Shown here: positions 5,177 through 40,849 of the stretch, piece by piece
Position numbering within the stretch: position 1 is the first letter of the stretch
Layout of the letters: every line of letters begins with the position of its first letter
Virus record (IMG/VR): IMGVR_UViG_3300035645_000269
Strand: one strand, 5' to 3'
DNA: 64,000 nt
Source of the DNA: a virus
Program-made: the position numbers and the translations under genes
Notes under the pieces: generated by a model
Seen by the model: only the letters and a program-made list of their open reading frames with translations
Databases searched by the model: none
What the model was told of the DNA's origin: nothing

Positions 5177-5565
5177 CGGACGTAGCAAGCAGACAATACC
5201 CGCATTACCTATACAAGCGTACAAGCAACGGCGAAGCCGTGCAGGACGCTAACGGTAGTTGGAAGGCTTTCGACGCGGAATGGACGCTACACAGCATTTG
5301 CCGCGAGGAAACCAACGGGAAGGGTACGCAGATACAAGCCGCGAACGGGAAGTTTGTTACGTTCGCTTCGCTAATACAGATACCTAAAGGCGTGCAACGC
5401 ATACCCGAAGGCATGGAAATAGCGGTAGCGGATGAGCCGTTAGAGCCTTCACGGTTGCTTAACCAAGAAACAATGGAAGAAGCTAAGATTTCGGGAATAA
5501 TTAGGATTTCCGGCGTTTGCTTGAAATTCGACAAAGGGCGTTTGCATTGCAGGTTATGGGTTTAG
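5170..5565 (+). CDS. head-tail adaptor protein (131 aa)
   Basis: Small ORF with overlapping start, position between the capsid gene and the major tail gene. Confidence 0.3.
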   Translation: MVTDVASRQYPHYLYKRTSNGEAVQDANGSWKAFDAEWTLHSICREETNGKGTQIQAANGKFVTFASLIQIPKGVQRIPEGMEIAVADEPLEPSRLLNQETMEEAKISGIIRISGVCLKFDKGRLHCRLWV

Positions 5566-6017
5566 AAACGAAATTCACGGGAGATATAGACGGCATGTTT
5601 AAAGCCTTCCTTCTTGAAGTGGAAAGGCAGATAATAGAAAGCCTTTGCCGTATAGGGGAAGAAGCCGTAAGCATGGCGAAGACCATACCCCCGGAACGCG
5701 GTTTTACAGACCGTACCGGAAATTTACGGTCTTCGATTGGCTACGTAGTCTTCAAAGACGGCAAGCCCGTTAATATCGCCTTTGAAGCGGTAAAGGGCGG
5801 TCACGTCGGAGTACACGAAGGACAACGTTTAGCCCAGCAGATCGGCGAAAACTATACCGACGGTTATACGCTGGTTGTAGTAGCCGGAATGAACTACGCC
5901 GTTCACGTAGAAAGCAAGGGGCGCGATGTTCTTACTTCCGCCGAGAAACAAGCCGAAAAAGCCATAGCTAAGGAACTTGCAGATTTAGTTACCAACATTA
6001 AAGACGCGTTCAAATGA
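5517..6017 (+). CDS. head-tail joining protein (166 aa)
   Basis: Small ORF with overlapping start, position between the capsid gene and the major tail gene. Confidence 0.3.
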   Translation: MLEIRQRAFALQVMGLETKFTGDIDGMFKAFLLEVERQIIESLCRIGEEAVSMAKTIPPERGFTDRTGNLRSSIGYVVFKDGKPVNIAFEAVKGGHVGVHEGQRLAQQIGENYTDGYTLVVVAGMNYAVHVESKGRDVLTSAEKQAEKAIAKELADLVTNIKDAFK

Positions 6018-6430
6018 AATATTGCAGCAGTATAGATACAGACGACATTCTTTTTAAGATTGTTTCGGAAGCGGTCACTTCCGGCAAAGTTGTTATAAAC
6101 GGCGGCGTTTTCACACAAGGCGAAAGACCGGACGACAGCGAAGCCGAGGACATCGTGATAAATACCATTACGGTAACGCACGACAAACCGCAAACGGGCA
6201 CTTCCAACGTGAATATTTACGCGAAGGATTTGAAGCTGCGGATTAAGGGCAAAGAGCAGCGCAAAGCCGACCGGGAACGCCTGCGAACCATAGGCAACGC
6301 GCTTGTAGCTTATTTGGACACGCAGAACATTGCAGACCTCGAATATTGGATAGAGAGCGACATCGTAATAAAAGAGCTTGAAGTAAACCAGCATTACCGG
6401 AACATTAGAATAAGTTGGAATATTCATTAA
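6014..6430 (+). CDS. tail completion protein (138 aa)
   Basis: Small ORF with overlapping start, position between the capsid gene and the major tail gene. Confidence 0.3.
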   Translation: MKYCSSIDTDDILFKIVSEAVTSGKVVINGGVFTQGERPDDSEAEDIVINTITVTHDKPQTGTSNVNIYAKDLKLRIKGKEQRKADRERLRTIGNALVAYLDTQNIADLEYWIESDIVIKELEVNQHYRNIRISWNIH

Positions 6431-6442
6431 ATTTTTATCAGT

Positions 6443-6967
6443 ATGGCAACATTAGTAACATTGGGTCTTTCCAAGATTTTAGGTAAGGTGGGAGAACCTA
6501 CGGCTTTAAACTTTACCGAAACTGGCTATACGGCATTCGGACTTACATACGAAGATACCTGCAAGATGTCACAGGAAGACCCGGAAGTAACCGAGTTCTA
6601 CGCAGAGGAAGAAGACGACCCGGTAGAAACCGTAGAGAAGCAAGGTAAAATAACCTTTACCTTCTCAATCATGAACCCCGACCTCCCCGTACTAAAACGG
6701 CTTTTCGGGGGCGAAATAGCTTCCGACATTTGGAGTTATCCCGATGCAGTAAATACCGTAGAGGAATCTATTATCATCCTTCCGAAAAAAGGTTTGAAGT
6801 TCCAAGTTCCACGCATGAAACTTGTAGCCAAAATTAATGGCGAGTTCAGTAAAAAGGGCTTGCTTCTTATCGAGGTTACGGGAACTGTGATGAAACCCAC
6901 AACTTCGGGATTGAAGAAAATGGCGGTAGGCAAAGTTTCAGCTTCTACGGCTTCCGTTTCTTCTTAA
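6443..6967 (+). CDS. major tail protein
   Basis: 174 aa ORF directly upstream of the chaperone and tape measure genes. Strong hairpin plus T-run follows at about 7000-7040. Confidence 0.45.
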   Translation: MATLVTLGLSKILGKVGEPTALNFTETGYTAFGLTYEDTCKMSQEDPEVTEFYAEEEDDPVETVEKQGKITFTFSIMNPDLPVLKRLFGGEIASDIWSYPDAVNTVEESIIILPKKGLKFQVPRMKLVAKINGEFSKKGLLLIEVTGTVMKPTTSGLKKMAVGKVSASTASVSS

Positions 6968-7045
6968 TACCGGATTGATAACATCATTTTCATTAACCGG
7001 AAGCCCCGTTTACTTTGTTTTCGGGGCTTCTTTTATATTCAGACA

Positions 7046-7618
7046 ATGGATTACAACGATAAGTTAGAAGCCTTAGAACGCGAACAAAGCGAATTAAGGC
7101 AGATGATAGGCGAAGGTATAACGTTTGACGTTGAAGTAACCTATACCCGCCGGAAGCCCGGCTTATTGGGCTTCTTCCGTAAACGCGAAAAGATTACCGA
7201 AAAGAAAGTATTCCGGGTTCAAGAGCCTACGCTGGCAACGCTTGACCGACTTAGCGCGCTTTGGCTACAAATGTCGATAGACGAAACCAAATTGAGCGAC
7301 GAAGACTATTTCAAGACCGCAAAGAAAATGGCAGCGCAGGAAGCCCGGAAACTTGCGCAGGTAGTAGCGGTTGCAGTATTGGGCGAAGACTATTACGACG
7401 TAACGGACAAAGGTGGCTATTTGGTACGCAAGCCCAATGAAACCCGCTTAGCCCGGCTTACTTCCCTTTTCCTTCATACCGTAACGCCTTCCCAACTTCT
7501 TACGCTCGCGATATTGATTACCAACGTAAGCAATTTAGGGGATTTTATAAACTCTATAAGATTGATGAGCGCAACGCGCACAAGCGACCCGACACAACTT
7601 ATAGAGCAACCGGGTTAA
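7046..7618 (+). CDS. tail assembly chaperone (G-like)
   Basis: 190 aa ORF between the major tail and tape measure genes. An overlapping -1 frame is open from 7441 to 7833. Confidence 0.5.
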   Translation: MDYNDKLEALEREQSELRQMIGEGITFDVEVTYTRRKPGLLGFFRKREKITEKKVFRVQEPTLATLDRLSALWLQMSIDETKLSDEDYFKTAKKMAAQEARKLAQVVAVAVLGEDYYDVTDKGGYLVRKPNETRLARLTSLFLHTVTPSQLLTLAILITNVSNLGDFINSIRLMSATRTSDPTQLIEQPG

Positions 7619-7833
7619 AAAGCCCACACGGTCGCCGGGGGTCGGTTTGCGCGCACTTCGGCTGGACGTTGGATTACCTTCTACACGGGATTTCGTGGGG
7701 AACGGTTCAGAGAATGATAGTAGATGCACCGGGAGCAGAGGAAGAAGACACGAAACCGGGAACGACGGAAGTAGTGCTTACCGAAGAAAACGCGGGCGAA
7801 GTATTGGACTTAATAAATAAACTTAACCGATAA
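7441..7833 (+). other. open -1 frame overlapping the chaperone 3' end and ending at the tape measure ATG (candidate G/GT-type frameshift extension)
   Basis: I checked codon by codon: frame 1 has no stop from 7441 to the TAA at 7831-7833, which overlaps the tape measure ATG (TAATG). Confidence 0.4.
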
Positions 7834-10800
7834 TGAACATACAAGGTGGCGGTTTGTCCTTTGAGATTTCGGGAAGCAACGATAAGTTGTTATCGGTACT
7901 TAACGAAAGCAAGAAGGCGATACAGAATTTTAGCACGGCGGCAGTTTCCGGCGGAAAGGGCATAGATAGAGCCTTTGAGAACGCAGCCGCCGCTATTGAA
8001 AAAGGCTTTGCAGACATTGACCGGATTGTAGATACGAACAAGGCTTCATTAGCCAAGTTGCAGGAAGAATACAAACGACTAAGTTCGGAAGCTGCAAAGG
8101 CTTTCAGCGAAGCGCGAGATGCGGACTACCGACGTTACATAGAAGCCGCAAAAAACATACAATCGGAAATAACTCTGCGCGAAAAACTGATTAACGAAGC
8201 GCAGGCTTCCGCCGACCAGCTTCTACAAGAAGAAAAGGCTTTAAAGAAGCAGAAGGAAACAGCCGAGAAAAACGTGAGCACGCAGATTTCATTAAGAACC
8301 CAGCTACGCAACGTTCGCGAAGAACTTGCGCTTTTGGAAGCCAACGGACAGCGCGGAACGGAAGCCTTCAAGAAGTTGCAGCAGGAAGCCGGACGGCTTA
8401 CCGACGCGATAGGCGACGCTACGACGCAGGCACGTATATTCTCCCATGACAACCGGGGATTGCAGGGTATGATTTCCGGGCTTAGCGGTGTGGTAGGCGC
8501 GTTCAGTGCGGCACAAGGCGCGGTAGCGTTGTTTGCCGGGGAAAACGAAGACTTACAGAAAGTAATGCTAAAGGTTCAAAGCCTTATGAGTATTACGATA
8601 GGTTTGCAACAAGTGGCGAACACCATAAACAAGGATAGTGCCTTTATGCTTACGACCGTAGCGAAAGCGAAAGAACTGTTAGCGGCGGCAACCAACAAAT
8701 TAACCATAGCTTTAGGCGGTTCAACCATTGCGGCAAAGGCGTTGATGGCTACACTTACTTTGGGGCTTTCCGTCGCTATTACCGTGATTATAGCGGCACT
8801 TTCTAAACTTCAAAGCAAGCAGGCGGAAGCCAAGAAAGCACAAGAAGAATTTAACAAGAAGGTATCAGAAGCAGCCGGGAAACCCGTAGCAGCTTACCGT
8901 GCATTGCAAACGGAATGGATTAGCCTTAGCGGTTCACTGAAAGAACGCGAAAAATGGGTGCAGGACAACGCCGACAATTTCAAAGAATTAGGCTTTTCAG
9001 TCCGTGACGCGAAGGAAGCCGAAGAACTGTTAGTTAGTAATAGTTCCAAATTTGTAGAAGCGATGATGTTGCGGGCTAAAGCCGCCGCTACAAGCGAACT
9101 TGCGATAGAAAAGTACAAGGCAGTAATAGAAGCGCAAAACAAGCTGGACGCAACCCCAAAAGCATACGTTTCCAAAAAAGGTACATATACGGACGGGTAT
9201 GGAGTAAAACGGAAAGGTACGGTATTGGAAAAAAGCGATACATGGAAAGAAGCCGAAGAAGCCTTAACGAAAGCCGAAGCCGAGTATAACAAACTTATCA
9301 ACCTGCAAGTAAGTTTTACCCAGCAGGAGAAGCAGATATTAGCGCAGATAGGCAACCAAGCCGGGAAAATTATAGCCGGAAGCGTGGAAGCCGCCGAAAA
9401 GGAGTTGGCACGGTTGCAGGAACTATACAAGAAGGCAGGTTCAGACAAAGAACGCGCCAGCTTGAAAAAACAGATAGAAGCGCAACAGAAGGAAGTAAAC
9501 CGGATAAGCCTTTCTTCCGGTAGCAAGAAAGAAAAAGACCCGTATTTGGAAATGCTGACGAAGCGAAAAGAAAAGTACGCGGATTATTTGAAATGGGTAA
9601 CAAGCAAGGATGAAACATTGAGAATGGCGGCAAATACCGAGTTTGCCACACTGTTGAAAGAAGGTACAAGCTACCTCGATTATCTGGAAAATAAACGTGC
9701 GGACATTCAAGCGAAAGCAACCAAAACAACAACCGACCTAAAGAACCTTAGCACGCTTAACAATGAGATAGCCAAGACCACGAAGGAAACGGTTATTTCG
9801 GACTTTGACAAAAAGCTGCAAGAAGAATTAGCGGCGTGCCAAACAATAGGCGCACGTTTAGACCTGCTGGAGCAACGAAGGAAGGAACTTAGCGGCGATA
9901 ATTCCGACGTGGATAACGCCAAGAAGGATATTATAGACGACGCCAAGAAAGACACTTTACAGCAAGCTAAGGAAGAAACAAAACAGTTACTAAGAGAGTA
10001 CGCCGGGTATTTGTCCGATAAGCTGGATTTTGAAGAAAGCTATGCATGGAAGAAACAAGCGATTACAGATAAGTTAGCCAAAGCCACCACCAGCAAGGAC
10101 AAACAAGTAGCCGAAGCTGCTTTAGCTGCATTGGAAAAGAAACGGGCGGAATACTCAAAGCTGACCGGAAATGAGCAATACGACCAACTTTTACAACAAT
10201 ACAAAACGTACCAGCAGCAACAAACCGAGATAATGAAGACGTACGCGGCGCAACGTGTTGAAGCCGAAAAGCAGGGAAATATAGCGATGATAGCGCAAAT
10301 AAACGCGAAAGAGCAAGCAGAGTTAAGCAAACTTGCAGCTTCCCGCCTTATGGCTTCCGAAAGCTGGAACCAGCTTTTCAGCGACCTAAGCACGCTTACG
10401 ACTAACACGATAAACAAGCTGATTACCGACATAAACAGCAAGAAGGTATCGCTTTCCGCACAGTTCAACCCGGCAGATCTGAAAGCCATTAACGACCAGT
10501 TGGAGAAGGCGAAGGACGAACTACACGAGCGTAACCCCTTCCTCGCCTTGAAGGACAGCTTAGCGGAACTGCGCGCCGCCATGAAAGCCGACAAACTATT
10601 AGAAAGCGACGACCCGTTTGTTAAGAGTTTGGAAGAAAGAAAAAAGCAGTACCAAGCCTATACGGACACCATAAATAGCGGTGACGAAATATTAGCTGGC
10701 GCGGCAAAAGAAGCGTTCGCGGAACTTCTTAGCGAAGGTTCTTCCTATGTTGATTACCTACGCCGGAAGATAGCCGAACTCAACAAACAGAAAGCCACAA

Positions 10801-12547: not shown

Positions 12548-13765
12548 ATGGCATTAGAACAGAATTTAATTTTAGACTTACCTTTCGACGAAGCGAACGG
12601 TTCTACCGTTGCATACGACTTTGCACAGAACCGCCACGACGCGACCGTAGTAGATTGCAGTTTTGTAGCAGGCAAGCAGGGAAACTGCATAAATTTTGAC
12701 GGCGAAGGATATGCAGACGTAAACTATAACGTTGTGCCCCTATCCGGCAGTTTTACCATATTGGCATGGGTAAAAGCCAATAAATACCCGGACGGCTACA
12801 CGGGCAAAAGAATAGGATTGTTCTGTAACACCGACCAAGTGGATGGCTACCGCACCTTTTGGATAGACGTAGAACCGGATAGCTGGGGCTTCTTCGCTAT
12901 AAAGAAGTCCGGCAACCGAGTTTTGGTATATTTAGACACACAGTTAATAGAAACGATCGTATTGCCTTCCACGCTTACCGGGATAGCGTTAATACAAGAC
13001 ATTTACGGTATTGGTTACGGTTACGCCGATTTAGACAGCGTGAAAGTGTACAACGTCGTATTAAGCGACGCGGAAATAGGCGAAGAACTTAACTCCGTTG
13101 CGCAGCTTGAATATTATTTGGACGGTAAAAACTTCCGCGATTTTGGAATACGCGTAGAAAGTTCTACGGGCGTTCTTGACCTTCCCAAACTGAAAACCCC
13201 GGCTTCCGTTGATTGGGCGGACTATCACGGGAAAGTTATAGACCTTAGCGAAAAGCGATACCAAGAACGCGAAATAACGCTTAATTGTTGGCTAAAGGCT
13301 TCCGGTAAGATGGATTTCGTTGAACGGGTTAATACCTTGTACGACCGTTTCCGGCAGGACGGCACGCAGCGGCTTATGATTTCCATACACCCAACTAAAC
13401 CGCTTGTTTACGAGGTTTATTGCGAAGACGGGGTAGCCCCCTCCAAACGTTGGCACGATGATAAAATGATAGGTACTTTCTCCCTGAAGCTGAAAGAACC
13501 AGACCCGGTTAAGCGCGTCGTAAGACACCAGCGGTTAAACAGCGGTTCGGCTAAGGTAAGCGTGGCGTTCAAATCCGATAAAATGATTAATATTTATTGG
13601 GGTGACGGTACGGTAGATACCGACGTTTACGGGGATTGTACCGGAAAGAACGCCATTAGCCACACCTACACGGATAACGGAATTTATTACATAATTGTAG
13701 CCGGGGTAATTGAAGACATAACGGACTTTGAAACTAACGGTATTGTAGTATGGAACAGATTATAA
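12548..13765 (+). CDS. distal tail protein (Dit-like) with N-terminal lectin/LamG-like domain
   Basis: 405 aa, position after the tape measure gene. C part resembles the 172 aa ORF at 58173..58691. Confidence 0.4.
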   Translation: MALEQNLILDLPFDEANGSTVAYDFAQNRHDATVVDCSFVAGKQGNCINFDGEGYADVNYNVVPLSGSFTILAWVKANKYPDGYTGKRIGLFCNTDQVDGYRTFWIDVEPDSWGFFAIKKSGNRVLVYLDTQLIETIVLPSTLTGIALIQDIYGIGYGYADLDSVKVYNVVLSDAEIGEELNSVAQLEYYLDGKNFRDFGIRVESSTGVLDLPKLKTPASVDWADYHGKVIDLSEKRYQEREITLNCWLKASGKMDFVERVNTLYDRFRQDGTQRLMISIHPTKPLVYEVYCEDGVAPSKRWHDDKMIGTFSLKLKEPDPVKRVVRHQRLNSGSAKVSVAFKSDKMINIYWGDGTVDTDVYGDCTGKNAISHTYTDNGIYYIIVAGVIEDITDFETNGIVVWNRL

Positions 13766-29076: not shown

Positions 29077-29691
29077 ATGAGAACAGTAACAGTTGAAGTG
29101 CCCGAAGGACACATGGTAAAAATCGTGAAAGAAGAAAGTATGCAACCTACTCAAAAAGTTACGGGGGGGGGTAAATTTGAATTTGAGGGTGAGACATTCA
29201 TCCCCGGTGACGTAATTATCAATCCGAATCGCGGAGGGGGCAGCATGATGATTCTCTCTGAAATTAGAGAAGAAAGGCCACTCTCTTTTTTACCGGCAAT
29301 TAAAGTACCTTTCGGCCTTGTCGCCTATGTTCCTTCCAATGATGAAGGTGACAGAGTTTTTGTAAGACTCACACCCGAAGCTGGTATCGGAGGCATGAAG
29401 GGATTCCGTAAAGCTACGGAAGAGGAAAAGGCAAAGATGCTTGCCGCCATGAAGGAAGAAAAACATTACTCCTTCAATTTTGAGAAGTTACAGCCTGAAT
29501 ATATCCCGACTGTCGGCGATGTTGTTATTGTATGGGATGATAATAGCAAAGAAAATGCGGTAGTCGGTGTTATGAATGAAATGGATAAAACAGTCAGGCC
29601 ATACAAGATAAATGATGGTACTTGGTATGGGAACTGCGACAAGTTCGTTTCAGAAGAACAATATAAAAATTTGATTGATGGGAAAGAGTAA
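29077..29691 (+). CDS. hypothetical protein containing an in-frame G9 tract
   Basis: 204 aa. The poly-G at about 29163-29171 encodes TGGG. Confidence 0.35.
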   Translation: MRTVTVEVPEGHMVKIVKEESMQPTQKVTGGGKFEFEGETFIPGDVIINPNRGGGSMMILSEIREERPLSFLPAIKVPFGLVAYVPSNDEGDRVFVRLTPEAGIGGMKGFRKATEEEKAKMLAAMKEEKHYSFNFEKLQPEYIPTVGDVVIVWDDNSKENAVVGVMNEMDKTVRPYKINDGTWYGNCDKFVSEEQYKNLIDGKE

Positions 29692-30410
29692 ATCTAAATC
29701 GGGGGGGGCGAGAAATTACACTCCCCTTCTCACAGCTCGCCCAAAGGGAATGAGCTACCAAGAATATCGTGAACGCAGAGCCTATCAGAACGCATGGTTG
29801 AAAGAGCGACTGAAAGGCTTTATTTGTTATGTATCGTCTGAACTGGTTGTATATGACAAAATAACGGGATTACCCCGATTATTCAATCATCGTACAGATG
29901 ATATACACAAAGCAAACATAAGGACTAACCCACAGCCATTTGTCGGTTCTGCCCGATATGGCTTAAAACCTTTATGATATGGATAAAGAACTATTTAAAG
30001 ATAAGAATCCATTGCTTCGCAGACAAATGTTGGAAGACAATTGCGCAGCAGTTGAAAGAATTACCTATACTTCTCCTTTCAGCGAGGAAGAAATGGGTGA
30101 ACGGAAAACGGAGTTGGCAAATATTGACCTTGACATGGCCGCACTGGAAGAAGAAAAGAAAGCTTTCATGCAAGCATACAAGGACAAACTGAAACCTAAA
30201 AAGGAACGTAAAAAAACGTTGCTTACCGATATAAAACGTGGTTATGAGGAAATTACGGATGAATGCTTTAAGTTTATGGATCGTAGCACCCGTACCACCG
30301 GATATTACAATGGTAATGGCGATTTGGTTAAAGAACGTCCGATGGAGGCACAAGAGATGCAAAAAACGGTCTTCGAGGACATTGAATCTACTGGTACGGA
30401 GGGATAAGCC

Positions 30411-30689: not shown

Positions 30690-31598
30690 AACAACATGGA
30701 AAACGAAAAGATGCAAGTGAACTTTGCTCCGGGTGTGACCGAAGCAACCCTTAGAGTTATTGAACTTCACGAAGAAAATGAGTTACCGGTACTGGAGCCT
30801 GATAAGGTAGAATTAGCCGGAACAATTGGAAGTGTTCATGAATTTCTCTTGAAAAGAATCTCTGAAAAAGAGCAGATCAATCAGAAACGTTGCTATATTC
30901 TTGTTGATCGGGAGAAAATGACACTTAAACTTGTCACCAATGAAACTGACAGTAGGAATAAAGCTACTGTAAGAGGTGAGTTGAAATACTATCCCAAGTT
31001 TCTTGAATTTGGTATTAACACAAGCAAGACATGGGAACCGGTGCAGCTTTCAAAGTTCTTCAAAATGAATCGTGCCTTCTTCAAGGATGCACAATACAAC
31101 ATGGAACTGGTAACAGTCTTGAAGAACTTCAAAGCCAGCATTGACTCAAAAGTGGAAAACTCCCGACAAGACAACGGTAGTCGCACTGACAATTACAGCC
31201 AAGTTGTCAACTCCAATCTTCCGGCCTCATTCAATCTTATTGTCCCGATTTTCAAAGGTCGCCCTGCAGAAGAGATTGAAGTGGAAATCATTGCAGATGT
31301 GGACGGGCGTAATATTCGATTGTCCCTTTGCTCCCCTGGTGCAGAAGTGATAGTGGAAGAGGAACGCAACAAGGCCATTGACGAGCAATTATTGTTGATC
31401 CGTAAATTGGCACCGGATATTGCCATTATCGAACAATAACAATGAAGACTGTAAAGAAATACTGGAAGCCGGTACTTGTCGTATCGGCTTTCTTCATTGG
31501 CAACCGCGTATTCAATCACATAAATGCGTGGTTGGGAATTTCAATAATTATGCTGACAGTAGCATTTATAGTTTATAATATCATTAAAAAAGTAGAAA

Positions 31599-32408
31599 AT
31601 GAAAAGAAAGATTGATTTTTTGATTGTGGCACTATTTGCCGTTGTTTTGTTTGCTTCATGCGAAAGAGTTGCTCCCAATTATGCCGGTGTCCTTATGGAG
31701 AACTACGGCAAACAAGGGAAAGAAGATTTTAAAATCGTTGCCGGTAAGGTATCTACATGGGAATTAGGCACAGAGCTTTTTCAAGTTCCGCTATTCGATC
31801 AGCGTGGAGAATTTTCTGATCCAGTCACACTAAAAGCAGCCGACAATACAGAGTTTACAGCCCGGCCAACTTACTCTTATAAAGTAATGAAAAACAGGGC
31901 TATTGATATTGTATTTGATAACAAGCATATTGATAAGGCTGACACCCCATCGGGAAAAGATGGCTTTATGCAATCATTAGAAGATAATATTTTGGAGCCA
32001 CGTATATATGATCTTATCAAAGAAGAAAGTCGCAAACATAAAACAGACAGTCTGATGGCTGACGGTGGTTCATTGGTATTTGAAAAGAGACTGGAACAGA
32101 TCGTTGATAAAGAATTTGAGAAACGGGGATTGCAGTTATTGACCTTCTCCGCACAATTGGAATTTTCAAGAGCTGTCCGCGATAAAATAGATAGCCGTAA
32201 CGAGGTAAACACTAATATTTCGGTACTTGATCAGAAGATTGAAGAACAAAAGAAGCAAAACGAACTGGAGCAACTAAAAACAGAACAAGCTTTAATTGCG
32301 TCCCGTGGACTCACCCGTGAGATTTTATATAAACAATTTATAGACAAGTGGGACGGGAAGACACCTCTATATGGCATTGCTCCTGAATTTTTAAAAATGA
32401 CAAAATAA
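31599..32408 (+). CDS. SPFH/band-7-like lipoprotein
   Basis: Lipoprotein signal LFASCE, then a region with coiled-coil C-terminus (EEQKKQNELEQLKTEQ). Confidence 0.35.
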   Translation: MKRKIDFLIVALFAVVLFASCERVAPNYAGVLMENYGKQGKEDFKIVAGKVSTWELGTELFQVPLFDQRGEFSDPVTLKAADNTEFTARPTYSYKVMKNRAIDIVFDNKHIDKADTPSGKDGFMQSLEDNILEPRIYDLIKEESRKHKTDSLMADGGSLVFEKRLEQIVDKEFEKRGLQLLTFSAQLEFSRAVRDKIDSRNEVNTNISVLDQKIEEQKKQNELEQLKTEQALIASRGLTREILYKQFIDKWDGKTPLYGIAPEFLKMTK

Positions 32409-33155
32409 TATGCTGACATTTCAACAAAGAAGAGATACGATATTGTCTCAATTTGCACAAGCAAAAGCCGATTTGGAAACACTTAATAGTGATATTGATG
32501 CAGAAATCGAAAAGAATAAATCTGTTATTTCTACACTAACTTCTAAAAATACAGAATTGGCCTCTTTAAAAAGTAATAATGAAGGCTCAATCAAGACTTT
32601 TGCTAAATTCCTAAAATAATAATTATCAACCCGATTAATAATCAGCTTCTCCCGGTGTGGCTTGACCGCCTATCCGGGAACTATCATGCCTCACCTTTTT
32701 TCTTCTCTTTGCAAGTCGAGTCGAGTACGCTGCATACGCTCCACGGCGGTAGATACTACAAAGAGTCTTTTTGTTCATGTAAAATGCCTCTATTGTAGAG
32801 GCAAACGGATAAGTGGCGAAATCGGAAGACGCTTAGTTTCTGTGGTAAAAATGCACGAATAGCATCACGAGTCAGGTAATATGCTATTAACACTTGACAT
32901 ACGTACAAACGGAAGCAGAAACGAAAATCCTGATTGCAACAGTTCCCGGTTCGAGTCCGGGCTTATCCACATAAATCAATCATTATGAAAGTTGAAATCC
33001 CCGACTATTTCCTAAAATCCTTTATCCGACATTTTGAAAGGATAACCGAGAATTGTAAAGCTTCACCTTCTGACATCAAGACCAGTGAAGCACTAAGGCT
33101 TGGAAAGAAAGATGTAATTAAGCTCAAAAGATTTATAAACAAAAAAGTATAATTT

Positions 33156-33611
33156 ATGAAACGAAGGATCATAGGTATAGATGTTGGCAAAAACGGTGGA
33201 ATTGTAGTGTACGACACCGAGAATAACAAATTATTGGAGTGTATCAAAATGCCACCAACTCCCAAAGACTTATTAGATTTTCTCTCCATATACAAAGAAA
33301 ATAGCGTTTGTTATTTGGAACGAGTGAATGGCATGACCGGACAAAGTGCTTCTGCCTCTTTTGTTTTTGGAGAAGGTTACGGACAGCTGACTATGGGATT
33401 GATAGCTTGTGGGATTCCGACAGTAACAGTATCTCCACAAACTTGGCAAAAAACTATAGGATTACGAAATACAGACAAATTGGGTAAGACAGAATGGAAA
33501 AACATCTTAAAGAAGAAAGCCCAACAGCTGTTCCCGTATGCAAAAGTTACATTGGCAACTTCGGATGCCTTACTAATATGTGAATATGGTAGAATTAAAG
33601 AAAAGGAATAA
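33156..33611 (+). CDS. RuvC-like Holliday junction resolvase
   Basis: N-terminal IIGIDVGKNGGIVVYD (RNase H-fold catalytic Asp), 151 aa. Confidence 0.5.
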   Translation: MKRRIIGIDVGKNGGIVVYDTENNKLLECIKMPPTPKDLLDFLSIYKENSVCYLERVNGMTGQSASASFVFGEGYGQLTMGLIACGIPTVTVSPQTWQKTIGLRNTDKLGKTEWKNILKKKAQQLFPYAKVTLATSDALLICEYGRIKEKE

Positions 33612-33886
33612 TGGAAAAATTAAAAAAATGTAGCAAATGTGGCCGGGAACTTCCGGTCAGTGAGTTTTGGAAAAATGCTTCAACCGAAGATGGATTGCAG
33701 ACATATTGTAAAGAGTGCGGTAATGTTTATGCCAGAAACCGTAAGAAAACTCCGGGGGGGGGGAATTTGAAGAAAATATATTCCAATCCTGAATTGGCAA
33801 AATTTTCTCCACGGGAACTTATCGCAGAATTGAAAGCACGTGGATATACCGGAGAATTGAAATACACCCAAACAATATCATTATAA
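33611..33886 (+). CDS. zinc-ribbon protein containing an in-frame G10 tract
   Basis: CSKCG...CKECG. The G10 at about 33754-33763 encodes PGGG. Confidence 0.35.
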   Translation: MEKLKKCSKCGRELPVSEFWKNASTEDGLQTYCKECGNVYARNRKKTPGGGNLKKIYSNPELAKFSPRELIAELKARGYTGELKYTQTISL

Positions 33887-34423
33887 ATGGAAAAGTTACG
33901 TCTATTGGTTACAACCAAATGTCCGAACAAATGTCCTATGTGTTGCAACAACTCATGGGATTTTTCAAAATTACCAGTTGTTGAGCACTTTAATTACAAA
34001 GAGATCATGATAACTGGTGGAGAACCACTTTTGTTTCCTGAAAAACTGGCAAATTTGGCTGAAAGTATCAAAACCGTTCAAAAATTGGCCTATGGTAATA
34101 AAGGAAAATTATTTCTATATACGGCACTGGCTGATATGCTCCCCAATTATATCAGATACTTCGATGGAGTTGTTTACACTCCACATTCTGTTAATGATGT
34201 TCATAGTTTATTGGAGGCCAATAATTTTTTGTTGGATTACAAAGATGAACTTATGGAAAGTAAATCTCTTCGGCTCAATCTTTTTCCTGATATTAAAAAG
34301 CATATTCCTGACAACACAGACCTTTCGTTATGGAAAGTAAAAGATATGCAATGGATCAAAGATTGCCCGGTTCCGGCTGATGAAGAGTTCAAAAGAGTAG
34401 CTGAATTATGGGAGGTGGAATGA
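33887..34423 (+). CDS. radical SAM-like protein (QueE/NrdG-like)
   Basis: CPNKCPMC (CX3CX2C) and ITGGEPLL glycine motif. Confidence 0.45.
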   Translation: MEKLRLLVTTKCPNKCPMCCNNSWDFSKLPVVEHFNYKEIMITGGEPLLFPEKLANLAESIKTVQKLAYGNKGKLFLYTALADMLPNYIRYFDGVVYTPHSVNDVHSLLEANNFLLDYKDELMESKSLRLNLFPDIKKHIPDNTDLSLWKVKDMQWIKDCPVPADEEFKRVAELWEVE

Positions 34424-34550
34424 TGAAAGATGTAATTACCCCCCCCATACACAACATCTCTATCCTTATCGCTGGTCTTTAGAAGATGCTGTTTTTACTA
34501 AAGATAAAGGAAAGGTATTTTCTTGTTTTGCATGTGGCGGTGGCTCTACT

Positions 34551-35513
34551 ATGGGTTACAAAATAGCAGGTTACGATGTTATTGGCTGTAATGAGATTGA
34601 TCCACGAATGATGAAATGCTATGAAACAAACCATCATCCCCAGTATAGTTATTTGGAAGATATTCGTGATTTAGTGAAAAGGAATAATCTTCCCGAAGAA
34701 CTGTACCATTTAGATATATTGGACGGATCACCACCTTGCAGTACATTTAGCATGTCGGGATTACGTGAAGATGCGTGGGGTAAAGAAAAGAAATTCAAAG
34801 AAGGTCAAAAGACACAAGTTTTAGACACGCTCTTTTTTGATTTTATTGCACTTGCCAAACGCTTAAAACCTAAAGTCGTTATTGCTGAAAATGTGAAAGG
34901 ACTTCTTTTAGGGAATGCGATTGATTATGTCAGACGTATATACAAAGACTTTGAGGAAGCTGGTTATTATTGTCAGCATTTTCTTCTTGATGCTTCTAAA
35001 ATGGGAGTACCTCAAAAAAGAGAACGTGTATTCTTTATATGTATCAGGCATGATTTGGGAGTCCATTTCCTAAAAGTTTCAGACCTCTTCAATGTTGAGC
35101 CATACATCGACATGGAATTTAATGAATCGGAAATATATTATGGGGAATATGCGGATTACAAGGGAAAGCCTATTGGTGTAAAAATGAGAAAGTTATTTGA
35201 GCAGAGAGTGGCAGGAGATATTGCTTTGGCAGAGGCCTATAAGAAACAAACTGGAAAACGAGGCTTTTTTAATCAACAATATCTATATGAGAACAAAGTA
35301 AGCTACACCCTAACAACTCATGCAGACTCAATTATTCCTTTTAAGCAGCCTATATATTTATCACGGTCAGAAGTATGTAATATATCCACATTTCCACAAG
35401 ATTATCATTTCCTCAACCAATCCCCACATTATATCTGTGGAATGAGTGTACCACCCGTTATGATGGCGCACGTAGCCTCACGAATATGGAAATATTGGTT
35501 ATCTAAATTATAA
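34551..35513 (+). CDS. C5-cytosine DNA methyltransferase, N-terminus displaced into another frame by a poly-C tract
   Basis: Motif IV GSPPCSTFSMSG and motif VI VIAENVKGLL. Motif I (VFSCFACGGGSTMG) is encoded in-frame upstream of the annotated Met, but the only upstream ATGs (34420/34423) are in another frame across a C8 tract at about 34439-34446. Confidence 0.75.
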   Translation: MGYKIAGYDVIGCNEIDPRMMKCYETNHHPQYSYLEDIRDLVKRNNLPEELYHLDILDGSPPCSTFSMSGLREDAWGKEKKFKEGQKTQVLDTLFFDFIALAKRLKPKVVIAENVKGLLLGNAIDYVRRIYKDFEEAGYYCQHFLLDASKMGVPQKRERVFFICIRHDLGVHFLKVSDLFNVEPYIDMEFNESEIYYGEYADYKGKPIGVKMRKLFEQRVAGDIALAEAYKKQTGKRGFFNQQYLYENKVSYTLTTHADSIIPFKQPIYLSRSEVCNISTFPQDYHFLNQSPHYICGMSVPPVMMAHVASRIWKYWLSKL

Positions 35514-37178
35514 ATCAAATGAAATCAGAAGAATTAGCAACCCAGTGGTGTCAGGATCATCCTGATGCAACATTGGAACAAGCATTCATGGCCGGATTAG
35601 GCCATAAGATGAATATGAATAAGGATTCTCTTTCTGCAAGGAAAGACAAATTCAGAAGTGAAGTCCTCATGTATAGAGGGAAATATCCTGATGATATGTT
35701 GAAGGACTTTTTCGAGTATTGGACTGAATGCGGAGGACGGAAAATGCGCTTTGAGAAGGAACGTACATTTGAAGTTTCCAAACGTTTAGTCAGATGGTCT
35801 AATAATGATTTTAACAAGTATGGGAAACAACTTAATTCAAGTCAACAGCAATCTCCCGGCAACCGAAAAGAAAGCGTTGAAAGACTTGCTGACCTTGCAA
35901 GCGGAGTATTACAAGGGATTGCACGTAAGTTCGATTAAAGAAGCTGTTCTCAACACTCCTAACCTACCACTCTCCGTTATAAGAAAAGAAATCACATTGG
36001 CTGGCGCAAGAGCCATACTGGTAATTGCGATTAACGAGCTTGTGTCTTTTTTCAATGTTGGAAAAACGATGAATGATGTTCAAGTGGCACTTACCGCTGA
36101 TCTAATAATAGACAGATTCTATTATCTCAAATTGGAGGAAATCAAATTGTGTTTCCGTAATGCTATGGCTTCCGGTAAGATTTACGATAGACTGGACGGT
36201 AATATCATTCTCGGCTGGTTAAATGAATACGATGCACAGCGTGATGAAATTGTTTCTTCTCTTTCAATTAATGAAGCCCATGAACAAAATAATAACAGCA
36301 CTGGAATGTTCTACGGAGAATATATCAAACATCTAACTGAAAGATCGGAAAATGGAGATGAAGAGGCCAAAGAATTATTGGAATCCCATCAATCATTCAT
36401 ACAAAGGATGAAATCAAATGATAAAGAAGCCGCTTTCAAAAAATGGAAAGAAGAATATTATGGAAGAACTAAGAGACAAACTACTTGACTGGGCGAAACA
36501 ATTTGAAACACCTGATTTTATAAAAGATGATCCTATATTTTTTCCACATAAGTACAATGATAAAAAGGACATAGAAATCAGTGCCTTTCTTACTTCATGG
36601 ATAGCTTTCGGGAATCGCAAACTGATAATGCAGCAAGCAGAAATTTTGGATAATCTAATGGGTAATTCTCCTTATGCCTTCATTATGAACAAAGTATGGG
36701 AACAATACAAAGAAAATACAAATACCTTCTACCGTATGTTCACCTACCATGACTTCTTCTGCATTTGCCAGCGGTTGTACAACATATATCAGGAATGGGA
36801 TGATTTGGAAGTATTTTATGAGGGTTACAACAATGTTATCCGTGAAATACAAACAGATTTTGGTGGCGTAAAAGGTATTCCAAAATTGGAGCGTGATTCT
36901 CCATGCAAGCGTATTTGTCTGTTTCTACGGTGGGTAGTACGAAAATCGCCGGTGGATTTAGGTATTTGGAATATTATTCACCCGACAGAATTATACATAC
37001 CATTGGATGCACATGTTGCAAAAATGGCACACCAGCTTGGGATAACAACACGCAAAACAGAGGACTGGAAAATGGTTCAACAAGTAACCAATTACATGAA
37101 AACAATTTTCCCGGATGATCCGTGCCGGGGAGATTTTGCATTATTCGGATATAGTATTAACAATAAATAATTTACATT

Positions 37179-38627: not shown

Positions 38628-39478
38628 ATGAAAATATTAGTAAGTTTTTCAGGTGGTAAGGATTCACAAGCATGTTTGATCCAAGCCTTCAAACAATATG
38701 GGGGGGGGATTTAATCGCTGTGTTTTGTGACACCGGCTGGGAACACCCTGACACATATAAACATGTGAATGATGTTTGTCTGCAAATGGGAGTAAGACTT
38801 ATAACTCTCAAATCAAAATACGATTTTGTGTCTTTGGCAGTTCACAAGAAAAGATTTCCTTCCACGAATGCACGGTTTTGTACCAGTGAACTAAAAATGA
38901 AGCCAATGATTGATTATGTACTTTCTTTGAAAGAAAGCTGCATTATTATACAAGGTATCAGAGCCGGAGAAAGTACAGCACGTGCGGCAATGGAAGAGGA
39001 ATGTATGTACTTCAAATCGTATTTTCAACCTAATAAGAAAGGAAGAACTGAAAACTACCGAAGTAAGGATGTCAAAGAATGGTGTTCCCAATTTGACGCT
39101 TCTGTTCTAAGACCGATCTTCAAATGGAGTGCACAGCAAGTTATAGATTGCATACTGGATGCAGGGCAGAAACCGAATCCATTGTATTATCGTGGATTCT
39201 CACGTGTTGGATGTTTCCCGTGTATCATGTGTCGGCATAAAGAAATTGAACTTATAGCCAAAAATGATCCTGAAATGTGTCAACGTCTGATTCAAGCAGA
39301 GAAAAACGTGGGACATTCCTTCTTTCCTCCATCATACATACCTCAAAGATTCTGTAAAAACAAACAATATCCTTATGTAGAGGAAGTTTTGGAGTACGTT
39401 AAAGAACATACCCCTGATATGTTCGAGCCGGAAAGTGGATATGCCTGCATGAGCCTGTTTCATGGACTATGCGAATAA
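38628..39478 (+). CDS. PAPS reductase-family (PP-loop) protein, split by a poly-G tract
   Basis: The upstream ATG gives MKILVSFSGGKDSQACLIQAFKQYGGG (PP-loop SGGKDS) and stops just after the G tract at about 38700-38708. ORF 38672..39478 continues in another frame with GIRAGESTARAAMEE. Confidence 0.55.
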
Positions 39479-40609: not shown

Positions 40610-40849
40610 ATGCCGATAAGCGAAGTATATAACATGGACTGTATGGAATACATGAAGGGGATTCCTGATAAGTTCTTTGATTTAGCGATAGTCGATCCCC
40701 AGTATGGCATAGACATAATGCACAAGGGTGGGATGCCGAAGCATTTAGGCTTTAAGCAGTATAAACGCAAGGATTGGGACAAGAAACCACCTGGCAAAAG
40801 ATATTTTCAGGAGTTATTTAGAGTGAGTAAGAATCAAAATATGTTTTAG
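40610..40849 (+). pseudogene. truncated N4/N6 DNA methyltransferase fragment (DPPY-type)
   Basis: MDCMEYMKGIPDKFFDLAIVDPQYG is an N-terminal methylase block, but the ORF stops after 79 aa. Confidence 0.4.

Follow-up and report, generated by a model that had tools for sequence, protein, structure and literature searches.

In bacterial pathogens, methyltransferases subject to phase variation have been studied in depth; the phasevarions there include the Mod genes of Haemophilus, Neisseria, Helicobacter and Moraxella and poly-G genes such as cj0031 of Campylobacter. The Bacteroidota are better known for phase variation driven by invertases. For phages, a formal proposal of contingency loci came only in 2025 and concerned lytic coliphages; in T2 and T4, these "phage contingency loci" are short runs of at least six nucleotides in many gene classes. 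The hypermutable polyG tracts of Campylobacter Fletchervirus sit in receptor-binding proteins, and a polyG tract in a methylase gene of Bordetella phage BPP-1 is mentioned as never studied (PMC12633550, a 2025 preprint). The BPP-1 tract is the nearest direct precedent for the locus described here. We analyzed a stretch of viral DNA of 64,000 nucleotides, the IMG/VR record IMGVR_UViG_3300035645_000269 (hereafter the window), in which a run of eight cytosines (C8; 34439–34446, + strand) lies between the start codons of a C5-cytosine methyltransferase-family gene and its motif I. Comparison of related sequences makes it quite probable that this C tract is a slipped-strand contingency locus, that is, a heritable ON/OFF switch of the methyltransferase-family gene, and that the gene is OFF in the window.

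The window represents a LoVEphage-type temperate Bacteroides phage. Its positions 33000–37000 are 99.8% identical to MW660583 and 98–99.5% identical to five further records, whose phages had been induced from Bacteroides and Phocaeicola hosts or attributed to them. LoVEphage has been reported from several Bacteroides and Phocaeicola hosts, and induced isolates and lysogens exist (PMC12629997); in one survey of human gut viromes, no other inducible temperate phage was reportedly detected as often. We found no report of homopolymer switching in LoVEphage or any Bacteroides phage in open-access papers and bioRxiv, and the words homopolymer, frameshift and phase variation are absent from both LoVEphage papers.

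A preliminary description of this DNA had placed the methylase frame open from 34401, with no ATG before 34551 and with motif I ahead of the Met encoded there. A codon scan bore this out. The frame opens just after a TAG at 34398–34400, encodes ...YPYRWSLEDAVFTKDKGKVFSCFACGGGSTMGY... and contains no ATG, GTG or TTG between 34401 and ATG 34551, its first usable start; motif I (FACGGG, 34527–34544) lies upstream of that start. A non-ATG start upstream of motif I, which the preliminary description had named as one finding that would undo its proposal, was rejected: the sole candidate is the single near-cognate codon of this interval, CTG at 34401, immediately behind that stop codon. Three ATG codons in one common frame (34408, 34420 and 34423, spanning 34408–34425, + strand) precede the tract, and the sequence, the N termini of homologues and the annotations of C9 alleles identify them as the start codons of the full-length enzyme. 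The ATGATG at 34420/34423, overlapping the stop of the upstream radical-SAM gene, had been recognized before; the third in-frame ATG at 34408 had been missed. That upstream gene (33887–34423, + strand) encodes a radical-SAM-like (HxsC-like) protein of 178 amino acids, identified by profile search and by annotation in relatives. The TGA stop of its open reading frame (ORF) overlaps ATG 34420 in an ATGA arrangement, which suggests translational coupling of the methyltransferase to the radical-SAM-like gene.

The ATG frame had been said to enter the C tract and to stop at about 34480. Indeed, it passes through C8 and ends at TAG 34480–34482, giving the peptide MMKDVITPPIHNISILIAGL*, so that frame analysis defines the OFF-state product as an ORF of 20 codons from 34420 (34420–34482, + strand). 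The N-terminal segment of the enzyme that is out of phase with these starts (34447–34550, + strand) was delimited by homologue conservation and Pfam, and carries YPYRW (34461–34475), which is conserved in the family, in addition to motif I. It is followed by the body of the gene (34551–35513, + strand), usually annotated as a 320-amino-acid ORF and supported by profile match, by motifs and by a ratio of non-synonymous to synonymous polymorphism (pN/pS) of 0.19; the motifs in the body are IV (SPPC, 34728–34739), VI (ENV, 34887–34895) and a variant of X (GMSVPP, 35439–35456), all on the + strand. The only later start open to the C8 allele is ATG 34551, and the earlier statement that the C8 state yields a protein without motif I is thereby confirmed at the level of frames.

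Simulated alleles with C6, C9 or C12 encoded full-length proteins of 363–365 amino acids, and those with C7, C8, C10 or C11 ran into a stop after 20–27 codons. The earlier expectation that C9 or C6 would fuse the start to the enzyme was thus upheld by simulation, with the correction that C6 is two cytosines fewer than C8 and not three. In the ON frame the tract forms codons 7–9 of the methyltransferase and encodes Thr-Pro-Pro; it is built from CCC, which accounts for only 14% of Pro codons in the window genome. Homologues begin with MGGGMMKDV or MMKDV, and in two relatives with C9 the full enzyme of 368 amino acids is annotated from the ATG equivalent to 34408. Two viral contigs carry C9 followed by AAA instead of AA (CCCCCCCCCAAACATC). 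Because these C9 alleles are out of frame, a second short run adjoining the tract can also shift the phase.

To these frames we added a survey of tract length among genomes. A further 108 loci carrying the 5' anchor of the tract, which in this first search demanded at least four cytosines, were gathered from viral, genome and metagenome collections, bringing the total to 111 independent assemblies. Lengths ranged from C6 to C12 (C6 in 1 assembly, C7 in 11, C8 in 38, C9 in 46, C10 in 11, C11 in 3 and C12 in 1), and the start frame read into motif I in 45 of the 111 assemblies (41%). Length polymorphism was directly visible on identical backgrounds: seven flank haplotypes, each identical over 300 bp on either side and each seen 7–11 times, carried two to four lengths apiece, and one of them, seen 11 times, had C7 once, C8 three times, C9 six times and C11 once. 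In the same contigs, which served as a homopolymer control, A/T runs of 6–7 nt had a non-modal fraction of at most 0.07, with one A8 run at 0.16. The non-modal fraction of G/C runs of at least 8 nt was 0.17–0.60, and the C tract, at 0.60, was the most variable homopolymer in the region. According to coverage values read by hand from contig names, C8 (OFF) was the consensus at 53x, 58x, 75x and 131x, and C9 (ON) at 184x, 245x and 484x. Genomes of induced phages and isolates read C8, C8, C9, C9, C8 and C10. Moreover, of 68 whole contigs, three break off within the tract where 0.28 would be expected (P = 0.003); such breaks are the expected effect of within-sample length heterogeneity on assembly and are indirect evidence for it.

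The gene behind the tract is under purifying selection in both states. Among loci complete for the gene, the body was intact in 45 of 58 OFF and 32 of 37 ON genomes (Fisher P = 0.42). Among distinct bodies, pN/pS was 0.19 overall, 0.195 in ON and 0.188 in OFF genomes, and of the eight body sequences found repeatedly, seven occurred in both states. Because the ratio is equally low in OFF genomes and bodies are common to both states, the gene is kept by selection in lineages that are currently OFF, and decay of a pseudogene is ruled out on the same two grounds. The selection pattern fits frequent switching, not pseudogenisation. The tract itself also appears to be retained. No allele with an interrupted tract came to light. 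The first anchor, by demanding at least four cytosines, might have biased this outcome, but a scan starting on the downstream side retrieved the same 23 viral contigs, none of which has even a synonymous interruption, and ascertainment bias was discarded as an explanation. The tract was kept in alleles down to 83% nucleotide identity (17% divergence) and in protein homologues at 78–84% identity. Homologues at 76% identity or below begin with M..HKFPYNW.., without the tract or the Thr-Pro-Pro segment.

To what family the switched enzyme belongs was judged from the fused protein, in which the start is joined to the methylase frame. It matched the Pfam profile PF00145 (C5-cytosine DNA methylase) with 155 bits against a cut-off of 22, residues 32–356 covering profile positions 2–322 of 324, and contains motif I (FACGGG), motif IV (SPPC with the catalytic Cys) and motif VI (ENV) of C5-methyltransferases. 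A PDB search gave the same alignment range as the motif comparison with M.HhaI. Homologues of 354–368 amino acids cover 97–100% of the fused protein and keep H-x-F/Y-P-Y-x-W...FTKDKGKVFSCFACGGGSTMGY down to ~60% identity; because of this conservation, the segment cut off by the frameshift is regarded as an integral part of the enzyme. Protein-database clusters hold 4,528 members for the 366-amino-acid form and 198 for the 320-amino-acid form; these counts are confounded by clustering and gene calling, and no ON/OFF frequencies were derived from them.

The best match among solved structures was SpCmoX (PDB 8YF3; E = 4e-45, residues 28–364), the DNA cytosine C5-carboxymethyltransferase of Synechococcus phage S-B43, whose family is defined by SPPC together with Arg350 (PMC12783734). 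In the crystal structure of CmoX, Phe-25 stacks on the cofactor adenine; Arg350, which replaces Asn304 of HhaI, binds the carboxymethyl group of Cx-SAM (PMC12783734). Phe37 of the fused protein aligns with Phe-25 of SpCmoX. A product begun at Met45 (ATG 34551) would lose motif I, strand β-1 and Phe37 and is presumably inactive; because this product is without motif I and Phe37, we infer that activity is lost in the OFF state.

The preliminary description had called the enzyme Dcm-type, a label that proved too specific for a member of the PF00145 family whose closest characterized relative is CmoX and which has Met in place of the canonical motif-X Asn. The best solved-structure matches were CmoX, M.HaeIII and M.HhaI, along with several chains labelled only "Cytosine-specific methyltransferase", whose identities were not checked; only the general C5 family is supported by these comparisons, and the Dcm (CCWGG) type is not established. 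Membership of the CmoX family was considered and rejected: the SPPC motif is present (GSPPCSTFS), but Met stands in place of Arg350, and the annotation of the relative BI-TP1 lists no CmoA, the Cx-SAM synthase that phages with such an enzyme encode, often next to a CmoY ligase. More fully, neither CmoA nor an amide (CmoY) ligase was found in positions 1–50000 and 52029–68029 of BI-TP1, a statement that rests on annotation with no dedicated profile search. The motif-X Gly-Asn, in which Asn304 of M.HhaI contacts the cofactor, reads GMSVPP here with Met at that position, as assigned via the CmoX alignment. Met occupies the Asn304/Arg350 position in 115 of 120 homologues, and one of the 120 has GRSVPP. 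We therefore describe the protein as a C5-methyltransferase-family enzyme of a distinct clade, for which methyl is the most likely transferred group; its cofactor or transferred group may not be canonical. The clade is large, with more than 100 homologues that share SPPC with CmoX and have Met at the position of CmoX Arg350 and M.HhaI Asn304.

Besides the C tract, the window has at least four more tracts of its kind, a link that the preliminary description did not draw. Runs of G or C of at least 8 nt account for nine overlapping 8-mer matches in the window against 0.63 expected (~14-fold), and none of 100 dinucleotide-preserving shuffles reached nine. The five runs (G9 at 29163, G8 at 29701, G10 at 33754, C8 at 34439 and G9 at 38700) all lie within 29.1–38.7 kb, on the coding strand and in codons 8–48 of + strand genes, and all are length-variable among relatives. 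The first (T1, 29163–29171) falls in codon 29 of a hypothetical ORF (29077–29691); it is in frame here and, with G8–G10 in relatives, in 16 of 20 of them. The second (T2, 29701–29708), in codon 8 of another hypothetical ORF (29678–29977), is likewise in frame here and varies from G7 to G11 in relatives, being in frame in 21 of 35. The third (T3, 33754–33763) occupies codon 48, about midway along a zinc-ribbon ORF (33611–33886) with an endonuclease VII / Lar-like N-terminal domain and is in frame here; relatives have G6–G11, in frame in 23 of 71, and the tract governs only the C-terminal tail of the protein. With the C tract as T4, the window is thus ON at T1, T2 and T3 and OFF for the C5 enzyme and for the gene holding the fifth tract.

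This fifth tract (T5, G9 at 38700–38708) splits a PP-loop gene of the PAPS-reductase family (38628–39478, + strand) in the same way as the methylase is split. ATG 38628 gives MKILVSFSGGKDSQ... with the PP-loop SGGKDS, enters G9 and stops at TAA 38712–38714; the remainder of the enzyme is in the frame of 38672–39478. The fused protein matches PF01507 over positions 2–173 of 175, and the gene is in frame in 12 of 46 assemblies (26%). Exact-flank matching for this tract returned zero matches, owing to a single-A variant after T5 that is unique to the window, and a survey with the left anchor only was used instead; the variant sets the ON length at G10 in the window, and relatives need G9 or G12. 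Public annotations begin the PAPS-like gene downstream of the PP-loop.

Two further tracts came from relatives. The window holds a truncated remnant of an N6-adenine methyltransferase (40610–40849, + strand; 79 amino acids, with a DPQY motif), in which the interrupted sequence AAACCACCTGGC lies at ~40785–40796; relatives carry a variable C7–C10 tract in this methyltransferase, in frame in 6 of 23 (26%). The other tract, a G run, lies immediately ahead of the NPPY motif in a Dam-type enzyme of relatives; it is in frame in 36 of 63, among them 10 alleles in which it is a short G4 of fixed length. In the region downstream of the N6 remnant, the radical SAM and Dam-type gene of relatives are replaced in the window, which marks the module as mosaic. 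Counting these two with the five of the window, there are seven tracts, of which four lie in DNA-modification genes: the CmoX-related C5 enzyme, the two N6-adenine methyltransferases and the PP-loop enzyme of the PAPS-reductase family. All four share a common design, with the tract placed between the start and the catalytic or cofactor motif. States at different tracts were independent (Fisher P ≥ 0.12), and seven of the eight possible combinations of T2, T3 and T4 occur among 25 genomes.

Some other features of the phage were recorded in passing. An A6 run (31586–31591) lies 8 nt upstream of ATG 31599 of a band-7/lipoprotein gene and within the 3' end of an ORF for a membrane peptide of 57 amino acids (31442–31615). 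Its length ranges from A6 to A10 over 51 contigs, a variability that no other A/T run of that length shows, and it may serve expression tuning or act as a switch of the ORF end. In the relative BI-TP1 (PQ571265), a reverse transcriptase adjoins a tail protein with an Mtd_N domain (5441–8092), forming a diversity-generating retroelement; from sequence, the lineage seems to combine retroelement-based variation of the tail with repeat-tract switching of modification genes. Two annotations in relatives are odd: that of one relative near window position ~32.8 kb includes a "tRNA-His/Undet" joined from two pieces (5808–6010 in that relative's stretch), and the accessory module of OY731433 has a "5S rRNA" call by barrnap (13068–13173 of its stretch).

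Taken together, the locus has three of the features by which contingency loci are recognized: an uninterrupted tract of unstable length within an ORF, length variation far above that of controls, and toggling of an intact, selectively maintained ORF. The tract-length switch put forward in the preliminary description accordingly agrees with the sequences in each of its predictions at that level, namely C6–C12 polymorphism, identical backgrounds in both states and purifying selection. We propose that slipped-strand mispairing during DNA replication would add or remove cytosines and so bring ATG 34408/34420/34423 into phase with the rest of the gene or take them out of it. The full enzyme of 363–368 amino acids would come from tracts whose length is a multiple of three (C6, C9 and C12); at other lengths, including C8 of the window, translation would end after ~20 codons. 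The switch would be heritable and, by inference, reversible, and populations of phages and lysogens would be mixtures of modifying and non-modifying genomes. The benefit is likely bet-hedging, in that modified DNA would escape classical restriction enzymes yet be a target of modification-dependent nucleases, and the hedge would span the several host genera reported for LoVEphage. The C tract would then belong to a group of G/C tracts that switch independently of one another in an accessory and DNA-modification module.

Several points weigh against a contingency locus. The evidence for switching is a comparison between samples rather than of reads within one population, and the extreme lengths (C6 and C10–C12) come mostly from low-coverage contigs, mainly below 10x, and may include assembly error. 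The ON fraction of 41%, with 26% at two other tracts, is near the one-third expected of tract length under neutral drift, and because the fractions are so close to this value, selection on the ON/OFF state itself is a possibility rather than a result. In addition, OFF alleles could be leaky at a low level if RNA polymerase or ribosomes slip on C8: C_CCC_CCC has the form of a −1 slippery heptamer, and a slip there would lead into the ON frame. The fractions of 26–41% are also what the main rival explanation would lead one to expect, namely a neutral mutational hotspot, in which an unstable sequence sits in a dispensable accessory gene and length changes are tolerated without adaptive switching. 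Further defects in the methyltransferase gene of 13 of 58 OFF genomes, and the truncation of the window's own N6-methyltransferase copy, point the same way. However, 5 of 37 ON genomes have broken bodies too, so that much of this breakage is probably assembly noise, and the body is as constrained in OFF as in ON genomes (pN/pS 0.19). Nor does neutrality readily account for long G/C runs that exceed shuffles ~14-fold and gather at gene 5' ends within a single module, for tracts made of the rare codons CCC and GGG, or for a tract free of synonymous interruptions in 23 of 23 unbiased alleles and kept across 17% nucleotide divergence. We consider a purely neutral hotspot unlikely.

Programmed recoding would instead make C8 the functional allele: the full-length enzyme would arise when ribosomes shift by −1 on C_CCC_CCC, or through slippage during transcription, and tract length would be no switch. 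The ATG frame reads ACC CCC CCC, a formal X_XXY_YYZ heptamer on which a −1 slip yields exactly the ON protein, and C8 is common (38 of 111). Against this, the tract has no conserved length: some alleles require a −1 shift, some a +1 shift and some none, and in C9 alleles the enzyme is encoded without any recoding. The 94 nt that follow the tract lack significant structure (z = −0.55; 67 of 200 shuffles folded equally well), and the other tracts vary likewise with no consistent direction of shift. A programmed −1 frameshift was rejected for its lack of downstream structure and the unconserved tract length, and recoding in general appears very improbable. A sequencing or assembly artefact, in which all genomes would really have C9 and C8 would be a miscalled homopolymer, is harder still to credit. 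Homopolymers are error-prone, and the lengths furthest from C8 and C9 are found mainly in contigs below 10x; but C8 is also the consensus in the four OFF contigs of 53x to 131x and in several independently sequenced phage genomes, A/T runs of 6–7 nt in the same contigs are essentially invariant, and the window and the 99.8%-identical MW660583 both read C8. The artefact was excluded on the strength of the A/T control, the high-coverage OFF contigs and the independent phage genomes.

If the C tract is a contingency locus, its mechanism is familiar and the novelty is its setting, a temperate phage of the gut in which several DNA-modification genes are switched independently. It would offer a natural, population-scale example of such a locus in a highly prevalent temperate phage of the human gut, with switches concentrated in genes that decide how phage DNA appears to host restriction systems. 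If functional, these switches would provide a simple genetic account of how the phage copes with opposing defences, in hosts that restrict unmodified DNA and hosts that restrict modified DNA. More tentatively, LoVEphage might possess a combinatorial "phasome" of five (window) to seven (pan-genome) independent G/C tracts, four of them gating DNA-modification enzymes, which would generate many epigenetic phasotypes per lysogen population or burst. Such a phasome would complement, after entry, the variation of the tail protein by the diversity-generating retroelement of LoVEphage; the range of host genera could be explained by it, and in lysogens it would function as a phasevarion carried on a prophage. 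The C5 enzyme, with Met at the Asn304/Arg350 position and coupled to a small radical-SAM protein, might under this tentative extension install a non-methyl group. There are practical consequences as well: automatic annotation splits or truncates tract genes, one consensus genome misrepresents the population, and methylome-based assignment of LoVEphage to hosts would vary between samples.

Among characterized enzymes, SpCmoX resembles the LoVEphage enzyme in its SPPC catalytic motif, its C5-methyltransferase fold family and its being encoded by a phage; it differs in having GRMVPP (Arg350) where GMSVPP (Met) is found here, and phase variation of CmoX is not reported. The prophage methyltransferase PamA of Staphylococcus aureus reprograms its host (cited in PMC13076061). 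Like PamA, the LoVEphage enzyme is a prophage-borne methyltransferase that could methylate the host chromosome, although any such host effect is pure speculation; unlike it, PamA is a Dam-like enzyme without a repeat-tract switch. With the phase-variable methyltransferases of bacteria, the locus shares a simple-sequence tract in the 5' part of the ORF and would share ON/OFF switching of the enzyme by slippage and mixed populations (reviewed in PMC13076061). It differs from the bacterial phasevarions in belonging to a temperate phage of Bacteroidota and in encoding an orphan C5-family enzyme rather than one of Type III or Type IIG; moreover, it is one of several switched modification genes in one small genome. 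As in Fletchervirus and T2/T4, homopolymer tracts in phage genes would yield frameshift subpopulations, read as bet-hedging against host resistance or defence. Unlike the tracts of those phages, the G/C runs of 8–11 in LoVEphage concentrate in the DNA-modification and accessory genes of a temperate gut phage.

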